A DNA stretch of 64,000 nucleotides from the NCBI GenBank assembly GCA_964188305.1, contig OZ076894.1, one strand, 5' to 3'. Below, piece after piece: positions 9,801-64,000 of the stretch; positions within the stretch are counted from its first letter, which is position 1, and every line of letters begins with the position of its first letter. This stretch comes from Podarcis bocagei (taxonomy: Eukaryota). The notes under the pieces are model-generated. The model saw nothing but the letters and a program-made list of their open reading frames with translations. It made no database searches and had not been told where the DNA came from. Both the position numbers and the translations under genes were made by a program.

Positions 9801-12077
9801 CTGAAGAGCTGGAGGTGGCCAGGCGTCAGAGGGCCAGTTGCAGGAGGAGGAAGGGCTGCTCTTGAGCCCGGATCCTGCTTGTGGGTTTCCCACGGCATCT
9901 GGCTGGTCACTGGGAGAGCAGGAGGCTGGACTAAGGGAGCCCTGGGCCTGATCCTGGGGCTCCCTGGCACTGCAGGGGCAGTGGATTTTGATGGGGGCAC
10001 AATGGGGCAGAAGCAGACTCTGCAGGGCCTGTGGGGAGCTTGGACCATATCCCAGAAACGACTGCAAGGCTGGGGCAGCCCCACAGGGCCCCGACCCACG
10101 GAGCTGACAGCCGCAAAGGGCTACCAGCCCCATTGGCTGTCTTCTGCCTCTGAACACCAGATACAGGGGCAGACGATGAGGCTGCCCCCAAGTCCGGCTT
10201 AGAGACACTCTGGGCCCTTGCCTAGATGGCCACCTGTCTTGCATGCTCTAGCCGAGATTCCTGCATTGCAGGGGGTTGACCTAGATGACCCCTGAGGTCC
10301 ACTCCAACTCCCAATTCTATGATTCAGTGTTCTTGACACTGACATTTCATACATTCATAGAGTTGGGTGGCACAAGAAGAGTCTGGCTGCTGGACCACCT
10401 AGTCCATCATCGTGCTCTCGCAATGGCCAGCCGGATGCTGGTGGGCTGGGTTCAGCAGGGTGCCCTGGGGGCTGCCAGAGGTCTTGGGTGCTGGAGAAGT
10501 CCCAAGGGAGCTGGCAAGGGCTCCCATGCCTGCCTGCCCGCCTGCCCCAAACAAGTTCTTGAGGGAAGCGGAGGCAAGCGTTTCTGGCAGATGTGATATG
10601 AAGGATGCCTGCAAAGAATGACAGGCCGCCACAGCCTGTCTCCTCCTGCCGGAGATTCTCAGGAGGACAGAGTCCCTGCAGTGGCAGGCCCCCCCCCCCC
10701 CAGCATGGCACGAGAACGGAGGCTGCGTCTTTGGCCCTGCCCCTCCCTCACTTTAGTCCTGGGACTCTGAGTCAGCCAATGACTCCCACTGCCTTGAAGC
10801 TTGGGAGGGATGCCAGGATGCCCCCCCCCCCAGCCCTGGGCACCAATCTATCTATGGTGCCCCTTGCTTCAGTGGGTGTTAAGGAGGGTAGGTAACCATG
10901 TTGGTCTGACGCAGTCAAAATAAATTTAAAAAATTAAAGAATTGTCCAGTTGCACCTTAGAGACCAACTCAGTTTGTTCTGGGTCTAAGTCTTCTACTAC
11001 CTGAAGAAGTGTGCATGCACACAGAAGCTTCTATCCAGAATAAACCGAGTTGGTCTCTAAGGTGCTACTGGACCATTTGTTAAGGAGGGGTTAGAGGAGG
11101 GCTGTGAGCCAGGATGGTGAAAGGGCCTCCATGCCCAGGGAGAGGCGGGTGTCTCTGCCAGTTCCTTGCCGGGGGCAGAGGGGGGCTGAGCTCTGGCTTC
11201 CATAGAATCAGAGTCCTAGAGGGCTCTTGCTCCCAGCCCTGGCTGTTTGGCACAAGGAAGACATCTTCCACAGAAGTCTAGAATCCTAGACTTGCAGAGT
11301 TGGAAGGGACCCCTGAGGGTCTTCTAGACCAGCCCCCCGCAAGCATCCCTGGCAGACGGCCTCCCAATCTCTGCTTAAAAACCTCCAAGGAAGGAGAAAC
11401 CGGCAGCCTCTGCTCCTTGGAGCCTTTTCTCTGGGTCCCCCCCCCCCGTTTCCATTGACCTTCGGAGGCTGTTTCGGGGGTGGGGGGGGGTCTGGCTGGC
11501 TGGCTGTGCAGAGCCTCCCTGGCAGGACTGGGCCTTCTTCCTCTCCCTGCCTGCCTGCCTGCCCGCCGGCTCCTTCTGGCCTCCTGCCTGTGTGCTTCAC
11601 ACAAGGCCTCAGTGCTAATTGGGATTGACGGGTCTGTCTCTGCCGCTGCGGCGACGGGTGAGACATGCCAGGGTCGGCGGAGGCAGGCGGGCTCCCATTG
11701 GCAGCCTCCCCAGGCTCCTGCCAGCTGACCTGCCTCCTCTGCACCAGCTCCCACGGCCCCCCAGGAGGGATGGGGGCAGCCCAGCCAGACCCCCATCTCT
11801 GCCCCCAATCACTAGCGTTGGCTGAGTGGGGTTCCTTGGGAGACGCCTCCCTCTGACTTGCTCCCCGCCTCCCCACAGCGTGGAACATGATTTCCGGAAG
11901 CAGGAGGGGCGTTTGCAGCAGGTGCTGAGCACCATTGAGCCTGAGATGAGCCACAGCCCCCCGGGGGCCACGCGAGCTGCCACGCCGAGCCACCAGGAGC
12001 CGTCGCCAGCGCTGAATCTGCCCGTGGTGAAAGCGGAGCCCAAGAAGTCCCGGCGAAAGTGTTTCTGGTTCCTGTGA
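6897..12077 (+). CDS. INSYN2/FAM196-family protein (inhibitory synaptic factor 2-like), 3 coding exons, ~483 aa
   Basis: Exons 6897-8074, 9250-9324 and 11879-12077, all GT-AG with phases 2/2. Kozak GCCATGG. N-terminal VRSVLLKRDS...QQVRFKD and C-terminal LQSLEGVLETSQRTIKVLLDVIQDLEKKEAQRDG|RQSYRTGQDTTNCGTCRDCACIIYS|VEHDFRKQEGRL...CFWFL match the FAM196 conserved blocks. AATAAA at 12326-12331. Confidence 0.85.
10889..11077 (-). mobile_element. Older Penelope-like copy with inverted 5' part and degenerate hammerhead, 12-bp TSD
   Basis: TSD TGTTAAGGAGGG at 10877-10888 and 11078-11089. Imperfect inverted arms. CTGAAGAAGTGTGCATGCACAC from 11001, with a mutated GAAA box. Confidence 0.75.
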
Positions 12078-34200: not shown

Positions 34201-37200
34201 CTTGGCTAGTAGTAGCCCCCCCCTTCTTCTCCACTGGGCCTCTTCTCCTTCACCCAGCTGCCCTCCCAGGAAACCCCTCCCCCTGACTGCCTCCTTCCCA
34301 GCCCCACGGCTGCCCCACACCTACCGTCACGGCATGCATGGCGTAGCCCAGGCCGAGTTGGCGACAGGCCACCATGGCCTCGGTGGTGCTCCAGCCGGTG
34401 CTGCAGACGGTGCCCCAGCGGCCGGCGTGCTTCACCTCCACGCGCCCCTCAAACGCCGTTCGCCCCCCGGCGATGCGGATCTGTGGGGAAGCCCAGCGAT
34501 GAGCTGGCGGCTGTCCCTCCCCATCCTGGCTGGCTACCCCTTCCCACCAGCCAAGGCCAGGAAGGCAGTGGCCGCCCTCAGCCCCAGCCGAGTGGGGGGC
34601 ACGTCATCGTGGCCTCAAGGGTTCCCCAGCCCTGGCGCAAACCAAGCCCCTCCCCCACAGGGGCACTGGGGGTTGCCAGCCCCAATCTGCATAGGGGGAG
34701 TTGTGGGCTGGGAAAAGCCTGCAGGCAGCCTAGTGAAGTTCCCCGTCCTTTGGGAGGAGCTGCTGCTGCTGCTGCTACTACTTGGGGGTGGAGAGAGGAC
34801 AAGGCCCCTCTTCCCTGGGGCCCCCAGTGCTGACCGTGGTTTCGTGGCCCATGTAGGGGACGTTGCAGCGGGCGGCCGCGTCCTCTGTGTGCTTGCAGTC
34901 CTCCTGCGTGATGTTCTTGTGGGGGCAGCTCCAGAGGGACTTCTCAGTGCCCAGGCAGCGCACCTCGTTCAGGTGGATCTGGCCCATTCCTGTGGCAGGA
35001 GAGGAAACGCTGGGCCTCTGGGAATGGCCAGCTGAGAGCCCCTTTTGGGGGGCAGTCTATGGGGAAGGTGGTGGTGGGAGTCAGAGACGGCCTGTGCCCC
35101 CTTTCGTCATCCCAAGCCACCACCCACATTTCCTTTGCCAGGCTAGTCTTTTCTGTAGAAGTATACTTGTTTCCAAAGTGAGCACATCTCTGCCGGTGGG
35201 GGCGCATGCAGAGTGGGGGGACCCCCCATGAACATGGGGTGCCAGGCCTTTCTGGCACCTGTGGCAGTCCAGACGGCTGTGGGGTGTGTGTGGAGGGACT
35301 GTTGGACTGTGGGGCACCCCTGAAGGAGCAGCCCAGGCCCCCCCCCAGCGGCTCACCTTGGCCCATGCGTGCCCCCGTCAGAGCCTCCTTGGCGCTCCCA
35401 AAGCCAAGCTCCCGGCACACAACACTGGCGGATGCCAGGCTCCACCGGTCATCGCAGACGGTGCCCCACTCGCCGTTCTTCAGCACCTCGACCCGCCCCT
35501 CGCCGGGCTTGGCCCCTCCCTTCAGCCGTACGCGCTGCTGTGGGGAGCAAAGGGCAGTTGAGACGCCCAGGAGGTGGTGCCCTGAGGCTGCCCCACTCCA
35601 CAGTCCTCAGAGGTAGTGCAGTGCAGTGGTTTGAGAGCTGGGACCTGGGAGAGACTCCACCACCCTGGAGCTCAGGGGCCGATCTTTGGGCAGCTGCCAT
35701 CTCTCAGCCTGACCTGCCTCCCAGGCTTGTTGCAGGACAAAATGGGAAGAGGTGCCAACTTGCGCTCCATTTGGAGGAAAGGAGGGATGTTGAGGTCATA
35801 ATAAACAGCTGTGTCCTGCGTTCCAGGGGGTTGGACTAGACGACCCTTGGGGGTCCCTTCCAATTCCACAATTCTAGGATTCTGTGAAATCGCTGGCAGG
35901 CTGGGCAAGTGCCCCCTGCTCCCTCCTTCCTCGCTCACCTGCCCCGCCTGCTGCCGCTGCCTCTTCTTCTTCTGGGCGTTCCCGGTGGCAAACAGCGGCC
36001 CAGGGACGCAGCTGACCACGGCCGGCATCCCCGCCCTGCAGACGCCCGTGGCGTTGCCCTTGTAGAACTCGAAGGAGCAGAGGGAGAGGTGCACCTCCGT
36101 CCCCAGGCAGGCCACCGAGTGCAGGCGGTAGTTGAGCGGCTGCCGCTCCAGGGAGAGCCTGCAGGGAATAGGAGGGGGTCAGAGGGCAGGGCTGGAAGGA
36201 GCACACAGGTGGGGCACCTGTGGGGCAGCCGTGCATCATAGCATCTGCCCCCCCCACTGTCCCCTGCACTCCCATACCAAGCAGGGCCCTCGGCTTCTCT
36301 GGACCTGGAATGACGGCTGCAGAGGAGCCTCTGGCAGCCGGGTGCCAGTCCTGCCCTCAGACTCCCAGGGACTCACAAGGCCCCATTACCTCTTGGTGCC
36401 CCTAAAGTCCTCCCTGCGTCTATGTTTGGGGCGAGACCTGGAGACCGGCCTGGAAGACAGACAGACAAGGTGAGGGACGGAGCCCACCATGCACCCCTCC
36501 CTCCCTGGGGCCGGATCCTTGCAAACTCTCTGCTCATTTGCACTGCTCCGGGATGGATCAGGCCGCACAGGCCAGCCCAGGCTTGTCAGAAGCAAGCCTG
36601 GCATCCACTCCCCCAGGACTCATGCCAGCAGCCCCAGCCCCACGCAGAGAAGCCATGCAGCCCCACACCGGCAGTCAAGCATTGCAGGGAGGAGGTCTCT
36701 TCCAGCTCTGCAGTTCTGTGGCTCAATGTCTCATTTCTGCCTTGGGACTCTGAAGAACAGGAGAATGCCCCCTCCCGCCCTCGCTGGGCATCCAAAGCCT
36801 CCCTCTAGCCCACCCCACTGTGCCCCACAGCACCACGCAAAGTGCTGTGAGAAACCTCAAAGCTGATTGCAGTCCCCATTTTCTCCCCAGCAGCTGGCAC
36901 ATGTAGGATGGTAGAGTGCTTCTGTAAAAGGAGGCTCCATTTAGCCAGGAGGGATCCTAGCTCAGCAGCAGAGGACATGGTGCTATGAATGCAGAAGAGC
37001 CCAGGATACCCCCCCCCCAAAAAAAATCTCTCGCACACACTCAAAATAAGAAAATTCCTTCCAGTAGCACCTTAAAGACCAACTAAGTTAGTTCTTGGTA
37101 TATACCAAGAACTAACTTAGTTGGTCTTTAAGGTGCTACTGGAAGGAATTTTCTTATTTTGACTATGGCAGACCAACACGGCTACCTATCTGTAACTGGA

Positions 37201-40200: not shown

Positions 40201-42929
40201 TCCCACATTGCTGGGGGTTGGGAGAGGGTTGCAAGGAGGAGGAGTTGGAGGCTGGAAGGTGGGACCTGTCTGGTGGGAGCCTGTTGGGAAAACAACTTTT
40301 AACACCGCACCCCAACACACACAGAAAACCAGCAGGGTCTCCAAAGTGGGGGGAGGAGGAGGAAGAGGGCAGAGACTCTTTTGCTGAGAGGAAGGAGGCG
40401 GCTGGGGCTCGGGTGGAACCTCCTGCTGTTGAGAAAAGAATCCCTGGACCCAAAAATGCAGCCACAGGGGTGTGGGGCCTGCTTAATAGAAAGCAGCATG
40501 GCTTTGCTGTGGCCAAGTGACGCCAGGCGGCCCCCACTTTCCCCTCGAGTGACGAGTCACAGAACGGAATGCTGTGGGTGTAAAACGCCTCTGGCCTCCT
40601 GCCCAGCTGGTTGGTGCCCCAGTTCCAGGGCTGACGTCACCCCCGCCAGCTGGAGACGGGAGGCCGTCAGGGCGGTGTGAGGAGGAAGCCCTGAGCAGAG
40701 GAAGGAAGAGCCAAGGGGGTCTGTGTGGAGTGAGGGGTCTGTTGTAGCTTCCCAGGAGGACTTCCTGACTGGGGCCTGGCCTGCTGGGAAATGCTTGCAG
40801 GGAAGCCCAAAACTGGGGGTGGGGAAGAGTTCACCCACCTCAAAATTCTCCAGAATATAATATGGGCAAACTGGCAATGGAAAAATGGAAGGAATGTGGC
40901 CCCAAAGCAGCCCTGCCAGGTCTCCCAGGGACACCTCAGGCTAGGCCCCCTCTTGCCCCCCACTCCTTCCCCGCTTCCACAGTGACCCCCTTACACCCGC
41001 AGGGCTAGATCCCAGACTGTGCTAACAGTGACGTTAAAGCCCCACATAGGAATGCGCCTGGAAAAGTCTGTGCGCTGGAGCCACGAGACATTTTTCCTGG
41101 AAAATCACCCTCCAACTGAACATTTGCTCTCCCTTCGTGGAGGAAACGCGTCCCAGCCATCTGGCCACAGGCAGCTGCAAGAGGAACATCTGGCCAGAGC
41201 TGCCTTGCTCTCGCTTACTCTTTCCTACTCTTTTTCGCCTGCCATAGATGCATAAACACCCACACCTGGGCAGCCCATGAAGCTGAGGTTGGAAGATTCA
41301 GGGTAGCTGAATCCTTCCTCAAGAGGGACTGAGCCCCAGGCAACAGGCCCAGGCACGAAGGCAGGGCTGGCCCAGCTGGGGGCCCTTCTTCCTTCCTTCC
41401 ACCCCCCCCCCCGCCTGGGCCTCCTCCAGTCTCTTTCAGGGAACATCCTGTGCTCTTCCAAGCCTTCCACGTCTGACTAATGCAGCCTTGTTGGGACCCA
41501 CATGCTTAGGGAGCAGTTGTCTGCAGCAGGAATGGGGATCCCCCTAGCTCCCACTGCCTCTGCTGCCACAGGCACAGCAGCCCTGCCAGCCTCCCCCCCC
41601 CCACTGCCCCCAAGCAAACATCTCCCCACCCACCTCAATCACATTGGAGTCCACAAAGCCAGGGATGCGCTCGTCTTTGCAGATGACACCGGCGTCTTCT
41701 TCATGGGAGCAGTCGCTGTTGCCCCAGCCCCTCGACCGGCAGTCCGTGATGCTCTTCTCACTGCCCCCACAGTTCACGTTGTCCAGCCAGATGCGCCCTG
41801 CAAAGCCATAGCCAGGAGGANNNNNNNNNNNNNNNNNNNNNNNNNNNNNNNNNNNNNNNNNNNNNNNNNNNNNNNNNNNNNNNNNNNNNNNNNNNNNNNN
41901 NNNNNNNNNNNNNNNNNNNNNNNNNNNNNNNNNNNNNNNNNNNNNNNNNNNNNNNNNNNNTGAGAGCGACTCTAGCCAGAGACTTTTCCTTAGTCAATCT
42001 TGGATGCCTGCTCCTTAGGACTGGCTGTGCTTACCCAGCAAAGAGGAGAAATGCTCTCTGCATATGCTTAAATGCAAAATCTTTTAGTATTCTCCTTCAC
42101 TGGTTCTGCAAGATTGTGGCCTAGAAAGCTGTGGAAAGCGAGGAGCCAGTGTGGTTTTGTGGTTAGAGTGTCAAACCAGGAGAGACCAGGGTTCAAGTCT
42201 CCATTTGCCCATAAAGCGCACTGGGTGACCATGGGCCAGTCCATGCCTTTCAGCCTTACCCACCTCACAGGGTTGTTGTGCAGATTAAATGAGGAGTGGG
42301 AGAAGCACGTGGTCCACTGTGCGCTCCTTATTTAAGTGCAATAAACAATTAGATAATATTATGTATTTAAACAATCTGTGGCCTTTTAAACTGCATGGCG
42401 TGTTTGTTACTATGTTATGTATTTTGTGATTTTTATATTGTGAAGCACCCTGGGGTCTTCTAGAAATTTAATAAATTCAAATGTGCAGCCTGGATCAGAT
42501 CAAGGCTGCAGCTTATGAGTGTCTCCTCTTCTCAAGGACAAAACAGTGCAGGGGCTGCCCCGCCCCCGCCCCCGCCCTGCCCCATCCCAGCGCCCCTTGC
42601 CCCGGCCCTCGCTGCTCACCGATGCCTTTGCCATACTTGGCGCTGTGAGTCCAGCCGGTGGCGGCCACAAAGCCCAAGTGGCGGCAGAGAACGTGGGCGT
42701 TGGCCAGAGTGAAGTCGTCGTCGCAAATGGTGCCCCACTCCTGGCCGTAGAAGACCTCGATGCGCCCCTCGTTGTGCTTGCGGGGGTAGCCAGCCAGCCG
42801 GAACTGCAGCTTGGGGCGAGCCGGGGTGCTCTGCACTGTGGGTGCCGCTGGGGTGCTCTGCTGGGCGGCGCCCACCCCCAGCCAGACACCACACAGCAGC
42901 CCAAGCACCTCCCACAGGGCAAGACCCAT
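31241..42929 (-). CDS. LOXL3: Lysyl oxidase homolog 3 (4 SRCR + LOX domain)
   Basis: Exons 42620-42929, 41634-41797, 39883-40094, [38572-38622, 36390-36449 optional], 35939-36158, 35357-35537, 34835-34989, 34325-34480, 33649-33808, 33149-33392, 32786-32901, 32434-32570, 31400-31511 and 31241-31314. Signal peptide, WGTICDD SRCR motifs, Cu-binding [11 protein letters not shown] and [19 protein letters not shown]. Lies between HTRA2 and DOK1 as in mammals. Confidence 0.95.
37041..37200 (+). mobile_element. Penelope-like element copy forming a perfect 122-bp palindrome, 12-bp TSD
   Basis: 37041-37101 is the exact reverse complement of 37102-37162. TSD ACACACTCAAAA at 37035-37046 and 37201-37212. 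Confidence 0.85.
38940..39380 (-). repeat. CR1 ORF2 fragment
   Basis: ttctgttgatgcagcctagaattgcattagccttttttgctgctgcatcacactg is typical CR1 RT-region sequence. Confidence 0.7.
39490..39760 (+). repeat. RTE-type LINE 3' remnant
   Basis: Encodes a [20 protein letters not shown]2H2-like C-terminus typical of RTE elements. Confidence 0.5.
41821..41960. other. Assembly gap (140 N) in a LOXL3 intron
   Basis: Run of N. Confidence 1.
42135..42335 (+). repeat. tRNA-derived (MIR/CORE-like) SINE
   Basis: A-box/B-box-like gtggttagagtg...gggttcaagtc followed by cctcacagggttgttg. Related copies at about 4600-4820 (-), 32920-33100 and 35615-35800. Confidence 0.6.
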
Positions 42930-46350: not shown

Positions 46351-46479
46351 TGTGTATCTGAAGAAGTGTGCATGCACACGAAAGCTCATACCAAGAACTA
46401 ACTTAGTTGGTCTTTAAGGTGCTACAGGAAGGAATTTTTTTATTTTGACTATGGCAGACCAACACGCCTACCTATCTGT
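46351..46479 (+). mobile_element. Short Penelope-like retroelement copy with minimal hammerhead ribozyme, 16-bp TSD
   Basis: AACTAGTTTTGGTCCC at 46335-46350 and 46480-46495 flanks a ~130-bp insert homologous to 37102-37200 and 10889-11077. Confidence 0.8.
46354..46391 (+). ncRNA. Minimal type I hammerhead ribozyme
   Basis: GUAU-CUGAAGA-A-GUGUG CAUG CACAC-GAAA-GC-UC/AUAC. Stem I is GUAU/AUAC, both catalytic boxes are present, stem II is perfect, and stem III is the palindromic AGCU. Confidence 0.75.
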
Positions 46480-46886
46480 AACTAGTTTTGGTCCCGTCGA
46501 ACTTTTGATGTTTCTGGTCTTGTAACGTCCCAAACGCAGAGGCAAACTTTGAATCGCGAAACCAGTTCGCTTCGAAGCTTTCCTTGCCGGTGGCCACGCC
46601 GTCCGGGATGAGGCCCCCGAGCAGAGAAAGGGCCCGCCGGGCTGGCCGTCCTTCGAGGCTGCTTCCGGCCAGAGGGCGGCCCGAGCGCGGCCGCCTGCCC
46701 CCTCCGGCCCGCCCCTTCGAGGCAGGGCTGAGCCAGGCCAGCGCCCCCATCCCTGGCCTGGGGGCGGAGCCGCCCCTCCCCGCCCGGCGGCTTCCGCTCC
46801 CTCGGCGAAGCCCCTCCCCGCGCCGAGAGGCGGCGGCGGCGCTGACAGATCCGGAGCGGCTGGGCTGCCCGCGGCGACTCTTCCGG

Positions 46887-54700: not shown

Positions 54701-57700
54701 TAGCCCAGAGAGTGAGTGGCCAAAGCCAGATTTCCTGAGTTTTAACAAGAGCCCCTTTTGGGGTTAAGAGTGCACCTAAGCATGGACAGAGTGCTTCTCG
54801 CTGCAGTCACACCTCTTGAACATGGGACAGGGCTCCCAGGGCAGCTGACGTGGCCACAACACAATTTTCCCATTGGAATCTGGGAACTGGGGAAGGGCTG
54901 AGGGGCACGGCAGGCTGGCCCTCTTCTCAAAGGGGCCCTTGGGGGCGCTCCCAGTGTCTCTCCCCCCCCCCCGCCCCGCTCAGATGGCTCCTGGGCAGGT
55001 ACCTGAGGATGTGGAGCTTGCGTGGCGCCAGGCCTGGGCCAGCTGCCATCCAGAAGGGGCCACTGGCATCCTCCCGTTGCGCGGTTGGGCCATCTCCGCA
55101 GGCGGAAGTAAGCAGAGCGGGGTTGAGGAGCCTCTCCTGGGCATCGCATTTCACGCACACTGCAAGGGCAGAAGGCAGCAGGTCTAAGGGGGCGCAGGGC
55201 ATGCTCTGCCAAGCCATGGCAGCTGGGGACCCCTCCAGCTGCCAAGGACCCAGAGCCACTGCCAGCCAGAGCGGGCAGGACTGCCTGCCCAGGATGAATC
55301 TCAGGGCAGAGGGCGAGGGCTGTGCCAAGGACTGGAGAGGTCAGGTTTGTGTCTTTGGGCCGATGTCCAGGGCAGAAGACCCTTGGAGAGGCTGCCCTGG
55401 CCTGGTACAGCTCCAGGCGGGGGACGGGGCAGGGGGCAGCTCAGCCTGGGGCCTTGGGCACAGCCACCGCCAGGCCCCGTCCAAATTCAAGGCACCACTC
55501 TTGGCATTTAATGCCCCCAAGGACTCTCCCCTCACAGACTACAGCACCAACACTCTGGAACTCAGTGCCGATGGGAACGATGCTAGCACTTTTGCTGCAG
55601 CACTTTGGAGACCTAATTATTATTATCATTTGCTTCAGTAAGCTTACCCATGTATGTAAATTTGATATTGTCAGAGCTGCTTGAAGATCCTAGCTCACAG
55701 AGGATCACGCTAGCCAGCGATCATTAAGTAAAAGTCTTTATTGAATTACAGTTTCCATTCTCACGCTGCTGCGCGCAAACTCTACGTCTAGTAGCTAGAT
55801 CGGCGAAGCTCCGTCTGAGTCTCCGCCCCGTGTGCACCAACTTAATATCCTAGCCTTGCTCCACCTTTTCCGCCTGACTGTCCTCCTCTGGGTCCCTCTA
55901 CCCCCCGGGGCTTCTTCCTTCCGGGATTCTTCTGACGCTGACCCGGACCCTCCTGCCTCCTTGCGCCGGGCTTTAGGACCTGGTTCCCTTTCGGGGCTGC
56001 TTACTGCGCCGCCTTCCTCTGCATTTGAACTTGGCGCGCGCGCCCAACCTTCCACTTTCCTCTTAACCGTTTCTTCGCTCCCCGATGGAGGCGTGGCCAC
56101 TCCTGACTCCTGCCCTCCCTCCTGTGGTGAGCTGCCAGCGCTTCCCCCCTGGCTCCCTTTCTCTTCCCTGCTTCCTGGCGGTGACGCTGGTCCCGATTTC
56201 CAGCTGCTCCCCCCTGAGTCCCCTCTGGCTCTATCTTCCTGGGGTGCCCCCCTAGACTCCCCCCTTGCCCTGGCCACTGGTGCTCCTTTCTGTGAATCCT
56301 CTGATTCACTGGAAAGACTGGGAGATCTCGGGTCGTCGTCATCACTCATCTTTTCTTCTGCCTCCTCCCCTTCGCTCTCTGTCTCCTCCCTTGCCCGTGC
56401 CTCTGCTCCTAAACCCCTGACATCCATCCCCCCCTCGAAGCCCCCCAGTCCCCCCTCCCCTCCTTCCGGTGCTGGAGCTGGGGGCTGCTGTTGCAAAGGG
56501 ACGAACGTCGGATATCGGTCGCTTCCCGTGGCGGGCCTCCATCTGAACTCTTCCGGGTCTTCCTCCCTGCTCTCGTCGACGACGGTCACCTCCGCTTCCA
56601 TCTCTGTGCCGCCGTGCTCGAAACCAGGGTCGTCCCCGAAAATGTCCATGTCCGTCTCTCCCTCACTTCCTCCTGGCGGCGTTGCTCGTCCTGAGCAGTC
56701 CAGCCACTTTCTGCGGAACTGCTCCTCTGGCCTATCGTCCCACCAATACGAGGGTTCTGAGACAGATCCCGAGGGTGACCCCTCCGGGGAACGGACGTCT
56801 CGTGTTGGTTCCTCGTCCGAGTCGAACCCCCGGAACGTGCTGGCCGAAAGCGTGGGCGTGAAAAGCCAGTCGTCGAAAAAGTCTGCTGGCATAGGTCTAT
56901 GTGGGAAGAGGGCATGAAACTCGTCTTTGAGCAGAGGTTCGTCTAAGGCGTATCCCGGCACCCAGCTGTTCGCACTGGCCGGGGTGCCCTCCTTGGCGAG
57001 AAAGTATTCTACCCCCTCTTCCCCCCATCTGGAGTCCAAAATCTCCGTGACTTCGTTGATGCGTTCCTTCTGTGCTGCTCCCGCGTGCCCTGTTCTGTCT
57101 CTGGCCGGACTCGGCGCCGTTCCGGGTTCCTGGAACCTGTGCGGTGCCTTGTAGGGAGTGAGCACCGATCTGTGGAATACCGGATGCATTCTGGAACCCT
57201 CCGGAAGTGCCAGTCTGAAAGCTACCGGGTTGACCTGCTCTTCGACTTGGTAGGGCCCCAGTTGTTTATGCCCTAGTTTCTTCTTGGCCAACGACCTGGC
57301 CGGCACTGCGTGGGCCGCTAACCAAACCCAGTCTCCCACGTGGAGCTCTTCTCCAACCCTTCTGTGCTTGTCTGCTTGTACCTTGTATGCGTGCTTGGCC
57401 AGCTCCAGGTGGCGCCTCAGCTGATCGTGGACTTCCTGCAGCTCCGACGCGAACGCATCTGCTGTCTGCGGCTCCCCCTCCCCCATTCTTTCCAGGCCCG
57501 GGAAGGTTCTGGGGTGCCTCCCGTTGTTGGCGAAGAACGGCGTGACCCCCGTGGATACGTGCTTCGTGTTGTTGTAGGCGAACTCTGCAAGCGGCAGGTA
57601 ATCCACCCACGTCGCAGGCTGTTGATTTGCATAACATCTCAGGTACTGCTGCATGATGGCATTGACCCGCTCCGCTTGCCCGTTGGTCTGCGGGTGTCTC

Positions 57701-60700
57701 GCCGACGCCAGGTTGATCTTGACGTTCAGGAAGCCCATCAGCTTCTGCCAGAAGTTCGAGATGAACTGCCGCCCGCGGTCGGACAGAATAGACCGTGGCA
57801 GACCGTGAACCTTGAACACGTGGTCTATGAACAGTTTGGCGGTTTGCTCCGCCGTGGCCACCTTAGCACACGGAATGAAATGCGCCATCTTGGAAAACAG
57901 GTCCACCACCACCAGCACTGCCGTCTTGCCCCTTGAGCTGGGCAGATCCGTGACAAAGTCCAGGGCCACCCTTTCCCAAGGTTCGACCGGAGTTTGCAGC
58001 GGCTCCAACAGTCCGGCCGGCGGTTTGTGCACTGGTTTGGCCCTCTGGCAGGTGTCACACCTCGCCACGTAGTCTGCGACCTCCCCTCTCATTCCAGGCC
58101 ACCAGAAATCCCTGGCTACTAATTCCACCGTCTTCTCCTTGCCAAAGTGCCCGGCCGTGGGCGCGTCGTGCAGCTGCTGCAGCACCTTGGCTCGAAGTTC
58201 GTCTCCCGGCACGTAGATGGCCCCTTTACGGATGAGCAATCCATCTCTTAGCTGGAAACCGTCGGCCGCTGCCTTGCCCCTTTGCACCTCTGCCATATTT
58301 GCTTGTGCGAAGGAGTCCCCCTGCAACGCTCGCCGCACTGCCTCTAGGTCCACGGTCGCCGCGGCGCACGCCCACACTGTCGGTGCGAAGATGTGCATGG
58401 CGGCCGCTGGTGTTGCGTCCTCCAGATACTGTGGCTTACGGGAGAGAGCGTCTGCCATGATGTTGGTGTCCCCCGGGACATACTCTATTCGGAAGTCGAA
58501 GTTCGCAAAGAACTCAGCCCAACGTATCTGCCTCTGGTTCAGGAACTGTGCCGTGCGCCAGTGCTCTAGATTCTTGTGGTCCGTGCAAACCTGCACCGTG
58601 TGCTTGGCGCCGATCAGAAAGTGCCTCCACGCCTTGAACGCTGCATGAATTGCCAGCAACTCCCTGTCCCATATGGTGTAGTTCTGCTCGGACTTGCTGA
58701 GCTTCCTGGAGTAAAACGCTCCCGGTCGCCACACCCCCTGCGGGTCTTTCTGCAGCAGGACCGCCCCCACGGCTCTGTCCGAAGCGTCTGTCTCCACCCT
58801 CATCGGCTTGCTGGGGTTGACATGAAGCAGCTGCTCTTCCGACGCGAAGAGACGCTTGAGTGCCTGAAAGGACTGCTCCGCCTGCTCTGTCCAAATGAAC
58901 TTCTTTTTCTTGGAGCTAAGCGTGTCAGTGATGGCCGCCGTCTGCATCGCGAAGCCCTTGATAAACTTGCGATAGAAGTTCGCAAAGCCGACAAACCGTT
59001 GGACCTCCTTCCGGTTGCGCGGGCTCTTCCAATCCAACACCGCTCGAACCTTGGCGCTGTCCATGGCGAGCCCCTTGTCAGACAGCTTGTAGCCCAGAAA
59101 ATCCACCTCCGTCACGTCAAATTGGCACTTCTCCAGCTTGGCGTAGAGCCTATGTTGCTTTAGCCTGCTCAGCACTTCCTTGACGTGCTTGTCATGCTCC
59201 TGCTGCGACTCCGAAAAGATCAGGATGTCATCTAAGAAACAGACGCACGTCTTGTAGAGAAGTCCCGCCAACACGTGATGCATAAATGCTTGAAAAACGT
59301 GGGAGCCATTTTGCAATCCAAAAGGCATAACTCTATATTCGTAGGTCCCCAGGGGCGTGAACATGGCTGTCTTCCACTCATCACCCTCCCGCATGCGAAT
59401 GAGGTTGTACGCCCCCCGCAGGTCCAACTTGGTGAACACTCTGCCCTTCCGTACCTTCGCGAGGAGGTCGTCAATTCGGGGCATGGGGAAGTCCGATGGC
59501 CTAGTCACACTGTTCAAAATCCTGTAATCCACTACGAGTCTCTTTTGGGGCGTGTCCCGCTTCTTAACAAAGAATACGGGACTGCCCCCCACTGCCTTGG
59601 ACTCCCGGATGAAGCCGCGCTGCAAATTATGATCAATGAACTCCTTGAGTTCTTGCAGTTCGTCCTCTGACATGGAATACAGTTTCCCTTTAGGCAGCGC
59701 CGCCCCCGGCAGCAGGTCAATTTTGCAGTCATATGGTCTGTGAGGGGGTAGCCTGTCTGCCTCCTTCTCGCAGAAAACTTCCAAAAATTCAGCGTACTTG
59801 TGGGGAATCGCTTGCAGCGTGCCTAGCAGCAGCTGTGACTCCTCTTCCTCTCCTTCCTGCCTGGGCACGATGCAGTGTTCAGCACAAAAGGAAGAGCCGA
59901 AGGTCAGCTGCCTCTGGTACCAAGCCATCGTTGGGCTGTGCTTGTCCAGCCAACTCATGCCCAATACAACGGGCGTGTCAGATAGTTGAGTGACGTTGAA
60001 GCTGATGATTTCTCTGTGATTCCCAAGTCGCATCACCATTGGTGGCGTCTGCTTCACCACTTGCCCCCCGAGCAGCTCCCTGCCATCCACCGTGACAACC
60101 TGCAGGGGCAGTGTGGCCGGCAGCAACTGCACAGCGTGCCTGTCGACAAAGTCCTGCCCTATAAAGTCCGCATTGCTGCCTGAGTCGATGGTGATTGGCA
60201 CGTCTATGGTGATTCCATTGGGCAGCTGGAGAGATGCTGTGAGCCTCACTACTGGTTTGGGCGGGAGGGGGTTCACGGGCTGTAAAATCTCTGGGGACTG
60301 CGTCACTAACACGTCTGGCTGGGCCCCAGTGCCTCTTCCTCCAGCCAGACTGCGTCGTTTCCCTGCTGTGGTCCTCCTTGCTGCGTTGCTGCAGTCACCA
60401 TTGCTGAGGCTGCAGTGAGCTTGTGGGGCCTCTGGGGACACTCTTTTGCCATATGCCCTGGTTCCTCACAGACGTAACACTTCCTGTTCCCTCTAGGAGG
60501 CTTCGCTTTCACTGCTGCCGGTGCTAGGGCTCTGGTTGCTGACTGAGCCCTTGCACCTCCAACCTCCATAGGTTCGGCTCCTCCTCCTGGCGGAGGCGTG
60601 GATTGCGCCCGCGCTGCTTCTCTGGGAAGGAAGGAGGGGCCCCCGGCTGGTTCGCGCCCTCCACGCCCTTCTTCCCTGCTCCACGGACGTCCTTCCAGCC

Positions 60701-62916
60701 TCACCCCCACTGCCAGTGCCCTCTGAACGACCTCCTGGGTGGTTCGGGGTCTCTCCCCCCTCGCGATCTCATCTTTAATCGAGTTGTGCCGCCCCTCCCA
60801 AAAGAGGTCTCTTACAGGAGCCGAATCTCTGTCCCATTCCAGGGCACTGACCAAGGCGAAAAAGCGGGCATGATACTGCCTGACGCTGGCCCTCCCTTGT
60901 CTCAGCCCATGCACCTCCTTCCGTGCAAGATCCACGTCAATACTTGATAAAAAGCACCCATCCATTGCTTTAATAAAGGCATCCGCATTCTGGAGCGCCG
61001 GATCCTTATCTCTCCATAAATTGCGTAGCCATGCTTTCGCATCCCCATGCAAATGAGACATGATGAACCCCACTCTCTCTTGTTCATCTCTAAAGTCTTT
61101 ATGCAGCAGTTGCAGTGCGCACAGTACGTCGGCTCTAAAGTTGGGATACTGTTGCAGGTTCCCATCGAAGTGAGAGACTAGCCCGCCTGTCCGTCTCGCC
61201 AACCCAATTCCCTCCTGCCGGGGTGTCTGCTTTGTCAGCACGTCTAACCTGACCTGGAGATCCCTGCAGGCGGCAGCTGCCTCCTCCTCTCTCTTCCTGG
61301 ATGCGAGAACCTCGGCGTTCAGTTGTGCCACTGCTTTTCTGAGGTCCTCTACCTGCTGCTCAGCCGTCATGTCGTCTGCCGTTCGTGAGCTCGCTAGTAG
61401 GCACCTGTTTCTCTCCCCTCCTCGAGGCTGTAGATGCCCACAATGACGAGACGGAGCTTACTGTCAGAGCTGCTTGAAGATCCTAGCTCACAGAGGATCA
61501 CGCTAGCCAGCGATCATTAAGTAAAAGTCTTTATTGAATTACAGTTTCCATTCTCACGCTGCTGCGCGCAAACTCTACGTCTAGTAGCTAGATCGGCGAA
61601 GCTCCGTCTGAGTCTCCGCCCCGTGTGCACCAACTTAATATCCTAGCCTTGCTCCACCTTTTCCGCCTGACTGTCCTCCTCTGGGTCCCTCTACCCCCCG
61701 GGGCTTCTTCCTTCCGGGATTCTTCTGACGCTGACCCGGACCCTCCTGCCTCCTTGCGCCGGGCTTTAGGACCTGGTTCCCTTTCGGGGCTGCTTACTGC
61801 GCCGCCTTCCTCTGCATTTGAACTTGGCGCGCGCGCCCAACCTTCCACTTTCCTCTTAACCGTTTCTTCGCTCCCCGATGGAGGCGTGGCCACTCCTGAC
61901 TCATGCCCTCCCTCCTGTGGTGAGCTGCCAGCGCTTCCCCCCTGGCTCCCTTTCTCTTCCCTGCTTCCTGGCGGTGACGCTGGTCCCGATTTCCAGCTGC
62001 TCCCCCCTGAGTCCCCTCTGGCTCTATCTTCCTGGGGTGCCCCCCTAGACTCCCCCCTTGCCCTGGCCACTGGTGCTCCTTTCTGTGAATCCTCTGATTC
62101 ACTGGAAAGACTGGGAGATCTCGGGTCGTCGTCATCACTCATCTTTTCTTCTGCCTCCTCCCCTTCGCTCTCTGTCTCCTCCCTTGCCCGTGCCTCTGCT
62201 CCTAAACCCCTGACAGATATGTATTCAAATATATGGTTTTATTTTTTCAAAACCATTGGGTTTATTTAAATTTTGATTCTTTTTTTACGTCAGCTTCCTT
62301 GTAACATTTCATTGTATCAGTCATTATAGTACGTGTGTGTATTTATTTGTGTAAATAAGAATTTCATTTATGAGTGGCTTCCCATGAGGGGTGCCGAAGC
62401 AACTTACTATGCAATAATTTATATGAAACAAATACGGAAATAGCAAGAACAACTGCACACAGGGAAACAATTTAAAAAACCAAAACATTTGTAAATGTAA
62501 AGGGAGTTTAGAATACTGGACAAACACTGAATGGGACAGAGATGTTTAGCAGGGGAGGCAAGAGACGAGGGCACCCGTCTCTCTCCCACAACAGCAAGGG
62601 GTCCCAAAGGGTAGGTGCTGGGTGTGGTGTCAGCAGGCTCACAGAAGCAGGGAATCGTAAAGTTGGAGAGACTCCCTGAAGAGGAAGCTTTCGGTCTGGG
62701 TGAAGAAGCAACACAGGAATCCCATTGGCTCACACTTACCCGGGCAGCTCTGGGCTGCAGTAGGGGGGCAGAGCGCTCCAGCGGGCAGGAGGAGGTGGAG
62801 GTGCTCCTGGTCTGGGCTGTGGTCGTGGAACCAGCCCTTGAAGAAGGTCTCCAGGGCCACCACATCATTCTCCACAGTCTGGAGGTCAAGGACTGCGCCC
62901 AGGGTCACAGCGCTCT
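51782..62916 (-). CDS. M1AP: Meiosis 1 arrest protein M1AP, last 6 coding exons (5' part outside window)
   Basis: Exons 62740-62916, 55003-55159, 52997-53138, 52546-52764 (GC donor), 52114-52257 and 51782-51913, phases consistent. Motifs DLQTVENDVVALETFFKGW, KCDAQERLL, YGLPLVIRPTSCWRMNWDELEANQQLF, KRNWLLLAK and KARAMVAPL. Tail-to-tail with DOK1. AATAAA on - strand at 51549-51554. Confidence 0.9.
55669..56422 (-). repeat. 3' LTR (754 bp)
   Basis: Copy of the 5' LTR, preceded on the - strand by the PPT. AATAAA at 55737-55742. Confidence 0.95.
55795..60441 (-). CDS. pol: Retrotransposon Pol (PR-RT-RNaseH-IN-degenerate chromodomain + long acidic/basic tail), expressed by -1 frameshift near 60360
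   Basis: IDSGS protease. LDLRGAYN/MPFGL/FLDD RT. TDAS...ELLA...TDHKNL...ADALSR RNase H. HHCC and D,D-35-E integrase, GPY motif, chromodomain-like EILDSR...YFL...NSWVP. No internal stops. Confidence 0.95.
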   Translation of the reverse strand: MSPEAPQAHCSLSNGDCSNAARRTTAGKRRSLAGGRGTGAQPDVLVTQSPEILQPVNPLPPKPVVRLTASLQLPNGITIDVPITIDSGSNADFIGQDFVDRHAVQLLPATLPLQVVTVDGRELLGGQVVKQTPPMVMRLGNHREIISFNVTQLSDTPVVLGMSWLDKHSPTMAWYQRQLTFGSSFCAEHCIVPRQEGEEEESQLLLGTLQAIPHKYAEFLEVFCEKEADRLPPHRPYDCKIDLLPGAALPKGKLYSMSEDELQELKEFIDHNLQRGFIRESKAVGGSPVFFVKKRDTPQKRLVVDYRILNSVTRPSDFPMPRIDDLLAKVRKGRVFTKLDLRGAYNLIRMREGDEWKTAMFTPLGTYEYRVMPFGLQNGSHVFQAFMHHVLAGLLYKTCVCFLDDILIFSESQQEHDKHVKEVLSRLKQHRLYAKLEKCQFDVTEVDFLGYKLSDKGLAMDSAKVRAVLDWKSPRNRKEVQRFVGFANFYRKFIKGFAMQTAAITDTLSSKKKKFIWTEQAEQSFQALKRLFASEEQLLHVNPSKPMRVETDASDRAVGAVLLQKDPQGVWRPGAFYSRKLSKSEQNYTIWDRELLAIHAAFKAWRHFLIGAKHTVQVCTDHKNLEHWRTAQFLNQRQIRWAEFFANFDFRIEYVPGDTNIMADALSRKPQYLEDATPAAAMHIFAPTVWACAAATVDLEAVRRALQGDSFAQANMAEVQRGKAAADGFQLRDGLLIRKGAIYVPGDELRAKVLQQLHDAPTAGHFGKEKTVELVARDFWWPGMRGEVADYVARCDTCQRAKPVHKPPAGLLEPLQTPVEPWERVALDFVTDLPSSRGKTAVLVVVDLFSKMAHFIPCAKVATAEQTAKLFIDHVFKVHGLPRSILSDRGRQFISNFWQKLMGFLNVKINLASARHPQTNGQAERVNAIMQQYLRCYANQQPATWVDYLPLAEFAYNNTKHVSTGVTPFFANNGRHPRTFPGLERMGEGEPQTADAFASELQEVHDQLRRHLELAKHAYKVQADKHRRVGEELHVGDWVWLAAHAVPARSLAKKKLGHKQLGPYQVEEQVNPVAFRLALPEGSRMHPVFHRSVLTPYKAPHRFQEPGTAPSPARDRTGHAGAAQKERINEVTEILDSRWGEEGVEYFLAKEGTPASANSWVPGYALDEPLLKDEFHALFPHRPMPADFFDDWLFTPTLSASTFRGFDSDEEPTRDVRSPEGSPSGSVSEPSYWWDDRPEEQFRRKWLDCSGRATPPGGSEGETDMDIFGDDPGFEHGGTEMEAEVTVVDESREEDPEEFRWRPATGSDRYPTFVPLQQQPPAPAPEGGEGGLGGFEGGMDVRGLGAEARAREETESEGEEAEEKMSDDDDPRSPSLSSESEDSQKGAPVARARGESRGAPQEDRARGDSGGSSWKSGPASPPGSREEKGSQGGSAGSSPQEGGQESGVATPPSGSEETVKRKVEGWARAPSSNAEEGGAVSSPEREPGPKARRKEAGGSGSASEESRKEEAPGGRGTQRRTVRRKRWSKARILSWCTRGGDSDGASPI
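60306..61370 (-). CDS. gag: Retrotransposon Gag (coiled coil, capsid, CCHC zinc knuckle), 354 aa
   Basis: LRQG major-homology-like segment, EPMEVG and CYVCEEPGHMAKEC (CX2CX4HX4C). Confidence 0.93.
   Translation of the reverse strand: MTAEQQVEDLRKAVAQLNAEVLASRKREEEAAAACRDLQVRLDVLTKQTPRQEGIGLARRTGGLVSHFDGNLQQYPNFRADVLCALQLLHKDFRDEQERVGFIMSHLHGDAKAWLRNLWRDKDPALQNADAFIKAMDGCFLSSIDVDLARKEVHGLRQGRASVRQYHARFFALVSALEWDRDSAPVRDLFWEGRHNSIKDEIARGERPRTTQEVVQRALAVGVRLEGRPWSREEGRGGREPAGGPSFLPREAARAQSTPPPGGGAEPMEVGGARAQSATRALAPAAVKAKPPRGNRKCYVCEEPGHMAKECPQRPHKLTAASAMVTAATQQGGPQQGNDAVWLEEEALGPSQTC
61462..62215 (-). repeat. 5' LTR (754 bp)
   Basis: TATTAA at 61635-61640, predicted TSS about 61609, AATAAA at 61530-61535 (all - strand). 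One visible mismatch to the 3' LTR. Confidence 0.95.
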
Positions 62917-63768: not shown

Positions 63769-64000
63769 TGTCAGGGGTTCAGGAGCAGAGGCAAGGGCAA
63801 GGGAGGAAACAGAGAGCGAGGGGGAGGAGGCAGAAGAAAAGATGAGTGATGACGATGACCCGAGATCTCCGAGTCTTTCCAGTGAATCAAGATTCACAGA
63901 AAGGAGCACCAGTGGCCAGGGCAAGGGGGGAGCCTAGGGGGACACCCCAGGAAGATAGAGCCAGAGGGGACTCAGAGGAGAGCAGTTGGAAATCGGGACC
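63769..64000 (+). mobile_element. Second, diverged LTR of the same family in opposite orientation (truncated by window end)
   Basis: Starts TGTCAGGGGTTCAGGAGCAGAGG. About 11 substitutions and a 2-nt deletion against the intact LTR over 232 bp. Confidence 0.92.

Follow-up and report, generated by a model that had tools for sequence, protein, structure and literature searches.

In the lizard Podarcis bocagei, the Pol frame of an intact, very young sushi/Tf1-type Gypsy element runs through the polypurine tract (PPT) and the whole U3 of its 3' LTR, and U3 is almost certainly under selection as coding sequence. The element lies on the minus strand of the window, by which we mean the whole 64,000-nt stretch that was analyzed; its two LTRs differ at 1 of 754 nt. 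The read-through claimed by the earlier note was confirmed: Pol encodes 208 aa inside the 3' LTR, and its stop at LTR nt 626 lies 19 nt beyond the start site that self-priming predicts. We favor the reading that the resulting tail works as part of the integrase (IN) in nuclear entry or chromatin targeting, and give it a probability of roughly 0.7.

By Pfam, Pol contains a protease (PR), reverse transcriptase (RT), RNase H (RH), IN zinc finger, IN core, and Tf2-type SH3 domain, the last scoring above its cut-off (Table 1). The PR-RT-RH-IN order, two TG...CA LTRs, target-site duplication (TSD), primer binding site (PBS), PPT, and lack of env are those of a Ty3/Gypsy element, and the PBS is complementary to the predicted 5' end of the element's own transcript, as in Tf1/sushi self-priming. 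Sushi/Tf1-type chromoviruses have a self-priming PBS, a gag-pol overlap with G GGA AAC, and an IN end with SH3/GPY and chromodomain, which the window element shares, though its chromodomain is degenerate; the heptamer presumably acts in frameshifting as in sushi/PEG10-type elements. The start site was placed at ~55816 from the pairing of the 11-nt PBS with LTR nt 607-617. This match was found in 20 of the 23 LTRs that precede a PBS, and in lineage E both sides of the pairing have changed together, imperfectly. Podarcis homologues in the database match at 84% over the last 517 aa of Pol and have the same end point.

Table 1. Features of the window element and of the second element at the window's edge (positions in the 64,000-nt window).
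Feature	Position	Strand	Remark
5' LTR, TG...CA, 754 nt	61462..62215	-	one mismatch to 3' LTR
Self-priming PBS, 11 nt	61449..61459	-	complementary to LTR nt 607-617
gag: capsid, CCHC knuckle	60306..61370	-	counted from first Met; Pfam and ORF
G GGA AAC slippery heptamer, gag-pol overlap	60357..60363	-	predicted -1 frameshift
pol frame, 1556 aa stop to stop, PR-RT-RH-IN-SH3-chromo-like-tail	55795..60465	-	ORF and Pfam
Degenerate chromodomain	56893..57057	-	Pfam Chromo 19.3 bits, cut-off 25.1; W of LVxW strand is K
FFDDWLF-TPTLSAST-FRGF: aromatic segment, 8-residue S/T linker, FxGF	56824..56880	-	putative TIM/IBM-like
PPT, in-frame (…EGGMD…)	56423..56436	-	
3' LTR, 754 nt, U3 = 606 nt	55669..56422	-	one mismatch to 5' LTR
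LTR-encoded 208 aa of Pol (whole U3 and 19 nt of R)	55795..56422	-	omega 0.345
Basic clusters KRKV (56064-56053), KARRK (55974-55960), RRTVRRKRWSK (55887-55855)	55855..56064	-	predicted NLS or chromatin contact
ILSW motif	55837..55848	-	overlaps TATA-like TATTAA (55847-55842)
Predicted 5' end of R, also coding	55806..55816	-	start site ~55816, from PBS complementarity
AATAAA	55737..55742	-	53 nt downstream of Pol stop
TSD ATATC	55664..55668; partner 62220-62216	-	flanks both LTRs
Start of 5' LTR of second full-length element, lineage B (locus L031)	63769..64000	+	extends beyond window

The chromodomain in the window scores below that of a related family (L250), which reaches 43.8 bits. In a by-eye alignment to a canonical chromodomain (P0006), the three aromatic cage positions read N, K, and T; in group I, cage-intact chromodomains these are Y, W, and Y, as described in PMC3605345. 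We class the window chromodomain as degenerate and, on these residues, not as a member of group I. Behind it, Pol continues for ~366 aa, in agreement with the ~370 aa given earlier. The tail has the acidic, serine-rich composition that had been reported, being rich in G, E, S, P, and R and net acidic until the last ~60 aa, which are basic. An open frame of this length exceeds chance expectation both for U3 (P = 0.009 in 5000 dinucleotide shuffles) and for the whole tail (P = 0.0006). The base composition of U3 is 10% T, and the avoidance of T is strongest at codon position 2.

The claim of purifying selection had rested on a comparison with an "older LTR" at 63769, in which 6 of 11 substitutions, and 5 of the first 6, were synonymous. 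These counts were reproduced exactly. The sequence at 63769 belongs, as the 5' LTR, to a second full-length element (93% identical). This second element has an open Pol of 1568 aa with the same kind of read-through. At LTR nt 120 its 5' LTR has lost 2 nt, a private deletion that the earlier note does not mention; the 3' LTR is intact.

To sample the family more widely, the genome was searched five times with the best 40-52 candidates of each search scored, which yielded 191 full LTRs, or 149 once flank duplicates were removed. After 9 chimeric or lone divergent copies were left out, the lineages were counted; the eight sampled lineages have LTR identities of 72-92%. In all eight, real copies are open to a stop at TSS+19 (TSS+10 in one lineage). 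The U3 lengths of the eight representatives, which were picked for an open frame, are 606, 609, 609, 591, 678, 654, 636, and 636 nt, all multiples of three. Frame preservation was judged from these net lengths because global DNA alignments split some gaps into compensating pieces in distant pairs; the anchoring of indels by exact words was noisy. Young copies are open: in lineage A, the young family, 30 of the 30 best LTR matches carry at most two substitutions and no indel, and in lineage B the stop is at the homologous codon in 29 of 30 3' copies. Among old copies, broken frames are common; most are due to 1-nt changes in G runs, and a few of the frameshifts are shared by both LTRs or by two to three copies. 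Private U3 indels are mostly not triplets (24 of 30).

The eight-lineage data are far stronger evidence for a coding LTR than 11 substitutions could give. In 181 gap-free U3 codons, the numbers of invariant nucleotides at codon positions 1, 2, and 3 are 106, 89, and 38; of 59 invariant degenerate residues, 48 are encoded by more than one codon. In DNA-only alignments of U3, the NG86 omega in the Pol frame is 0.18-0.42 for all 28 lineage pairs, and 0.66-3.1 in the two other sense frames, which contain 3-11 stops per lineage. The maximum likelihood omega, computed for U3 only, is 0.345 and thus not near 1 (2dlnL = 114 versus omega 1; GY+F3X4, 198 codons, protein-guided alignment). The antisense in-register frame (55799-56917 in the window) is open in 6 of 8 lineages with an omega of 0.27-0.56; as a candidate for the selected frame it was rejected, having stops in lineages D and E, a higher omega in 27 of 28 pairs, and no early Met.

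Private variants were considered as a neutral control. They are 41% synonymous and fall 93/102/161 on the three codon positions; because this third-position excess remains, they were rejected, and the differences between the two LTRs of one insertion were adopted in their place. Both LTRs were present in 36 of 61 fetched regions, and 33 LTR pairs with matching TSDs formed the control set. Changes in this set are flat over codon positions (54/51/66, p = 0.33), with 3 new stops and with 12 of 14 U3 indels not multiples of three. Four independent lineage pairs give 86/121/201, which differs from the LTR-pair control (p = 0.014, or p = 0.003 without two probably recombinant pairs). When private variants serve as the reference, single lineage pairs often fall short of significance (A-B, p = 0.36). 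Since the neutral LTR-pair changes themselves have an NG86 omega of 0.60-0.66, the calibrated value for U3 is about half of neutral, and selection on U3 is moderate. Elsewhere in Pol, the NG86 omega is 0.01-0.16 for the IN core, 0.04-0.10 for the chromodomain, and 0.29-0.69 for the spacer; the constraint on U3 is much weaker than that on the IN core or the chromodomain and similar to that on the spacer.

A Pfam SH3 search of the same genome gave 150 matches, of which 30 loci were read; for distant families, 20 regions were fetched and 18 parsed. The distant families have ~50% identity in the IN region and LTRs of 411-437 nt that cannot be aligned to the window LTR. After passing the same …DVR… junction, their Pol extends for ~100-110 aa inside the 3' LTR and ends ~22 nt past the self-priming site. 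The Pol of a sister family (L242/L254/L256), unlike that of the window element, ends with the chromodomain ~40 nt before the PPT, and its PPT and LTR are non-coding. In the tree, from which L275 was left out by the segment filter, a 100/100 branch separates all 14 tail-bearing rows from the 4 tail-less ones, which fits a single gain of the tail. Two database proteins share the same layout. As to the range of the clade beyond lacertids, the read-through is so far known from this genome and from database proteins.

Directly behind the window chromodomain, the tail opens with an F-x8-FxGF motif, which arises in shuffled tails with P = 0.002. In the window family this motif is nearly invariant as protein, with 17, 17, and 11 of its 19 codons invariant at codon positions 1, 2, and 3. 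Host TIMs consist of a helix, a linker of 8-16 aa that is acidic or phosphorylated at S/T, and FxGF, which is essential for binding to LEDGF and HRP2, as described in PMC9987994; the IBM consensus is D/ExExFxGF, as given in PMC8022399. At the level of sequence, the window motif fits the pattern of linker plus FxGF, with the aromatic segment as a putative helix. It is single, its linker TPTLSAST has S at both acidic positions, and D/ExExFxGF is not matched; this linker would suit the acidic consensus only if phosphorylated. In the distant open tails examined, the motif is acidic and doubled: 9 of 9 have two F-x8/9-[FL]xGF motifs and 6 of 9 match D/ExExFxGF, whereas neither of two tail-less loci has any FxGF-type motif. 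Only the spacing is informative in the 23-row motif alignment, because its rows were drawn from segments pre-filtered for [FL]xGF.

The likeness to host TIMs and IBMs extends to the aromatic segment, the acidic or S/T-rich linker of 8-9 residues, and to FxGF sites that lie, often as tandem copies, in disordered regions (PMC9987994, PMC8022399, 10.1101/624023). Unlike those motifs, this one sits on a retrotransposon integrase, where it is a candidate binder, and in the window family it is without the acidic residues of the IBM consensus. The lizard genome encodes a LEDGF domain. A complex prediction for the lizard LEDGF IBD (P0034, 400-484) and a 32-aa window motif, made with no alignments and by a method unproven for peptides, gave a score of 0.01 and a mark of 0.34, values that speak neither for nor against binding. 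Searches of PDB sequences with the FxGF motif returned nothing meaningful, and an ESM Atlas search with the P0001 tail returned no usable match. We regard binding of FxGF to LEDGF/HRP2-type domains as a tentative proposal, somewhat less probable than its opposite. The LEDGF contact of lentiviral IN is made by the folded core and not by an FxGF-type motif.

The motif lies upstream of the PPT, and it therefore gives no reason why U3 itself is coding. The LTR-encoded part of the tail has conserved serine/acidic blocks, the three basic clusters, and a terminal ILSW, which is LLxW-like and reads LLCW in distant families, on different DNA. The suggestion that the tail is disordered agrees with its composition and with an AlphaFold model of chromodomain and tail (11 rows, mean pLDDT 38); this model, however, left the chromodomain unresolved as well.

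Insertions are non-random in placement or retention, lying near chromosome ends and older copies. Over five lineages, 22 of 108 insertions are within 0.5 Mb of a chromosome end versus 1.3% expected, a count that leaves out C19 and the unplaced contigs and includes the window's own two elements. The enrichment is present at both ends of several chromosomes; the youngest lineage has 4 of 23 insertions within the same distance. For the tail-less family the count near chromosome ends is 0 of 36, but its copies have a greater age (74-90% matches), and the two sets are not matched in this respect. Telomere-type repeats directly border about 11 of 149 LTRs. Of 59 young copies, 10 lie within 1.45 kb of another piece of the family, and 5 of these 10 are on one unplaced contig. 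The GC content of the flanks does not clearly separate tail-bearing (0.44-0.48) from tail-less (0.45) families. LEDGF tethering is known for a gene-body pattern, which differs from the placement seen here at chromosome ends, arrays of telomere repeats, and older copies. Contigs from three runs guessed to be RNA span the element, leave out the host flank, and show no start or strand; none in these three runs bridges the PPT junction by 31 nt.

In the mechanism that we propose, the genomic RNA would extend from the 5' R to the 3' R; because it is predicted to start and end there, U3 would be read once, at the 3' end. Gag-Pol would be made by -1 frameshifting with the U3-encoded part as its end, and the protease would free IN with the tail still attached. 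The basic end of the tail may then mediate nuclear import or nucleosome contact, and the FxGF motif may dock on a host TFIIS-N-domain reader such as LEDGF or HRP2, which would bias insertion. The probably disordered 370-aa tail of IN would take the place of a chromodomain whose cage has been lost. The targeting or NLS role that the earlier note had ascribed to the tail is plausible, and the TIM-like motif and the insertion bias sharpen it. A more speculative extension, which we hold to be possible but doubtful, is that the clade swapped methyl-lysine reading by the chromodomain for mimicry of host FxGF/TIM, and that a promoter repeat was recruited to code for the NLS and a second motif.

Transcripts with long 3' UTRs are subject to decay, and the frame might be kept open for the sake of the RNA, with a 3' UTR of <100 nt escaping decay and the amino acids mattering little. 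This agrees with the position of the stop, which in unrelated LTRs lies 19-22 nt beyond the point where R begins and which is 53 nt before AATAAA, with frame-preserving indels, with a tail that is largely low-complexity and turns over, and with a calibrated omega only about half of neutral. Stop avoidance, however, gives neither an omega of 0.345 nor the use of different third positions for 48 of 59 invariant residues; ILSW/LLCW is kept across different DNA, and the tail-less sister family manages without read-through. We consider this explanation unlikely on its own, although avoidance of RNA decay may be a contributing benefit. Slightly less likely still is that the U3 frame encodes an accessory protein of its own, of the nef/sag type, which would function independently of integrase, made from an internal ATG, from spliced RNA, or through protease release, and also expressed from solo LTRs. 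Protease release of the tail is conceivable, each lineage has some ATG near the LTR start, and a database entry (P0009, a gene call) starts at the homologous Met. The internal ATG noted earlier is present (62142 in the 5' LTR, 56349 in the 3' LTR), but it is not conserved: 3 of 8 lineage representatives have the Met at codon 25, and others have one at codon 14 or 36. The LTR's own predicted start site is downstream of U3, and in none of the families examined is the frame separated from Pol. The 184-aa peptide that had been suggested for solo LTRs is unsupported because its Met is unconserved and upstream of that start site. HIV nef and MMTV sag are coded across the PPT and U3 as separate genes with their own mRNAs, unlike the in-frame Pol extension in the window, whose own start codon is not conserved; the analogy drawn in the earlier note is thus weak.

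A T-poor, purine-rich U3 could also be open by accident, with the conserved residues a shadow of PPT, promoter, and R. The low T content, the open antisense frame, the overlap of ILSW with a TATA-like site, and the use of the last codons as priming target are in keeping with this. It is largely refuted by the stops in the other two sense frames, the avoidance of T at codon position 2 above all, the codon-position asymmetry, the triplet U3 lengths, the flat neutral control, and an antisense frame that is interrupted in two lineages and has no early Met; we regard it as very improbable. Among these rivals, avoidance of RNA decay ranks above a separate accessory product, and accident ranks last.

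The earlier note called the arrangement unusual for Gypsy elements. This is only partly so: in plants, all CRM group A chromoviruses, as described in PMC3059260, and some Bingo families of Beta vulgaris, as described in PMC3605345, also extend Pol into the 3' LTR. The literature outside subscription papers, Repbase, and supplements yielded no vertebrate or reptile Gypsy element with Pol running into the LTR; a retrotransposon FxGF motif was likewise not found there. In CRM group A the LTR encodes the CR motif, proposed to be a targeting domain of the IN C-terminus (PMC3059260, PMC3605345). The window element is like these elements in being Ty3/Gypsy, in a Pol that crosses the PPT and enters the 3' LTR, and in a 5-bp TSD. 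CRM group A elements have a tRNA-Met PBS, TGATG/CATCA termini, a single ORF, and a CR motif replacing the chromodomain. The window element, in contrast, has a self-priming PBS, TGTCAG/CTGACA termini, separate gag and pol frames, a degenerate chromodomain upstream of the PPT followed by 366 aa, an extension that spans the whole U3 up to R, and a vertebrate host. Judged without a CR-motif profile, no CR motif was seen in it. By these features it is not a CRM member, and its CRM-like arrangement is convergent. The passages drawn on from a review of extra ORFs in plant retroelements (PMC7264820) describe separate genes and not Pol running into the LTR. A long disordered IN C-terminus is also found in Ty1, there with an NLS and a short targeting motif (PMC8487063, PMC7459421); as far as these sources describe it, Ty1 differs in its Copia order, in a tail that is internal to Pol and not LTR-coded, and in its partner, Pol III. 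New here are the F-x8-FxGF motif that opens the tail, doubled and acidic in distant families, and the LLxW-like end.

In this vertebrate element, one LTR is at once promoter, priming target, and selected protein-coding sequence, and the arrangement has been maintained across a clade so old that the LTRs no longer align. It is a second, independent origin of the arrangement found in centromeric retrotransposons of plants, and suggests that encoding integrase tails in LTRs is a recurring way of acquiring new targeting modules. Repeat annotation that treats such LTRs as non-coding, or that calls "genes" in solo LTRs, misreads them. The FxGF motif offers a sharp and cheap handle on the site choice of a currently active vertebrate retrotransposon. 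If it does bind LEDGF or HRP2, then a retrotransposon would be using the host's own motif and not the lentiviral interface, and would have reached HIV's tether by a different route.

In lineage E of the family (copies L169 and L170), both the PBS and the 5' end of R differ in a concerted way from their lineage A counterparts, and 10 of the 11 pairs were kept. This joint change supports self-priming, in which the PBS pairs with the 5' end of R in the element's own transcript. The R bases that changed with the PBS in lineage E are coding too.

The antisense open frame over the Pol tail (see the table) was rejected as the frame under selection. It was judged to be a shadow of codon use; stops interrupt it in two of the eight lineages, and an early Met is absent.

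Features in the window and in the Podarcis bocagei genome (G000)
Feature	Location	Strand	Description
Inverted repeat	window 37036-37167		66 nt, near-perfect, spacer-less
Copies related to the inverted repeat	window 46355-46483; 10934-11083		
Antisense open frame	window 55799-56917	+	372 aa; overlies the tail, in register with Pol
LTR array L019-L021	G000:C9:46888898-46893523		three identical young LTRs, spacing 1937 nt

The inverted repeat and its related copies are a small foldback/MITE-like repeat family. Judging by their translations, host exons at window 23800-62900 appear to resemble AUP1, HTRA2, LOXL3, DOK1, and M1AP; both Gypsy elements presumably lie within introns of M1AP, with the end of the contig some 190 kb away. 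An N run of 140 nt (window 41821-41960) has no bearing on the LTR-coding finding.

Dozens of family copies on the 96-Mb chromosome C19 share identical flanks, a segmental amplification; C19 looks like a repeat-rich sex chromosome. A younger family member often lies inside or abuts older copies, within 6.6 kb (loci L184, L188, L196, L200, L206, L207, L214, and L218), and this nesting appears to be far above chance. The L019-L021 LTRs, the middle one of which has a PPT as well as a PBS, are an internally deleted tandem array.

The family has a strong target-site preference. In the flanks of independent insertions in the genome, the third base outside the TSD is A or T (117/119), a pattern with which telomere repeats are consistent. 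The TSD CTAAC/GTTAG was found repeatedly among these insertions.
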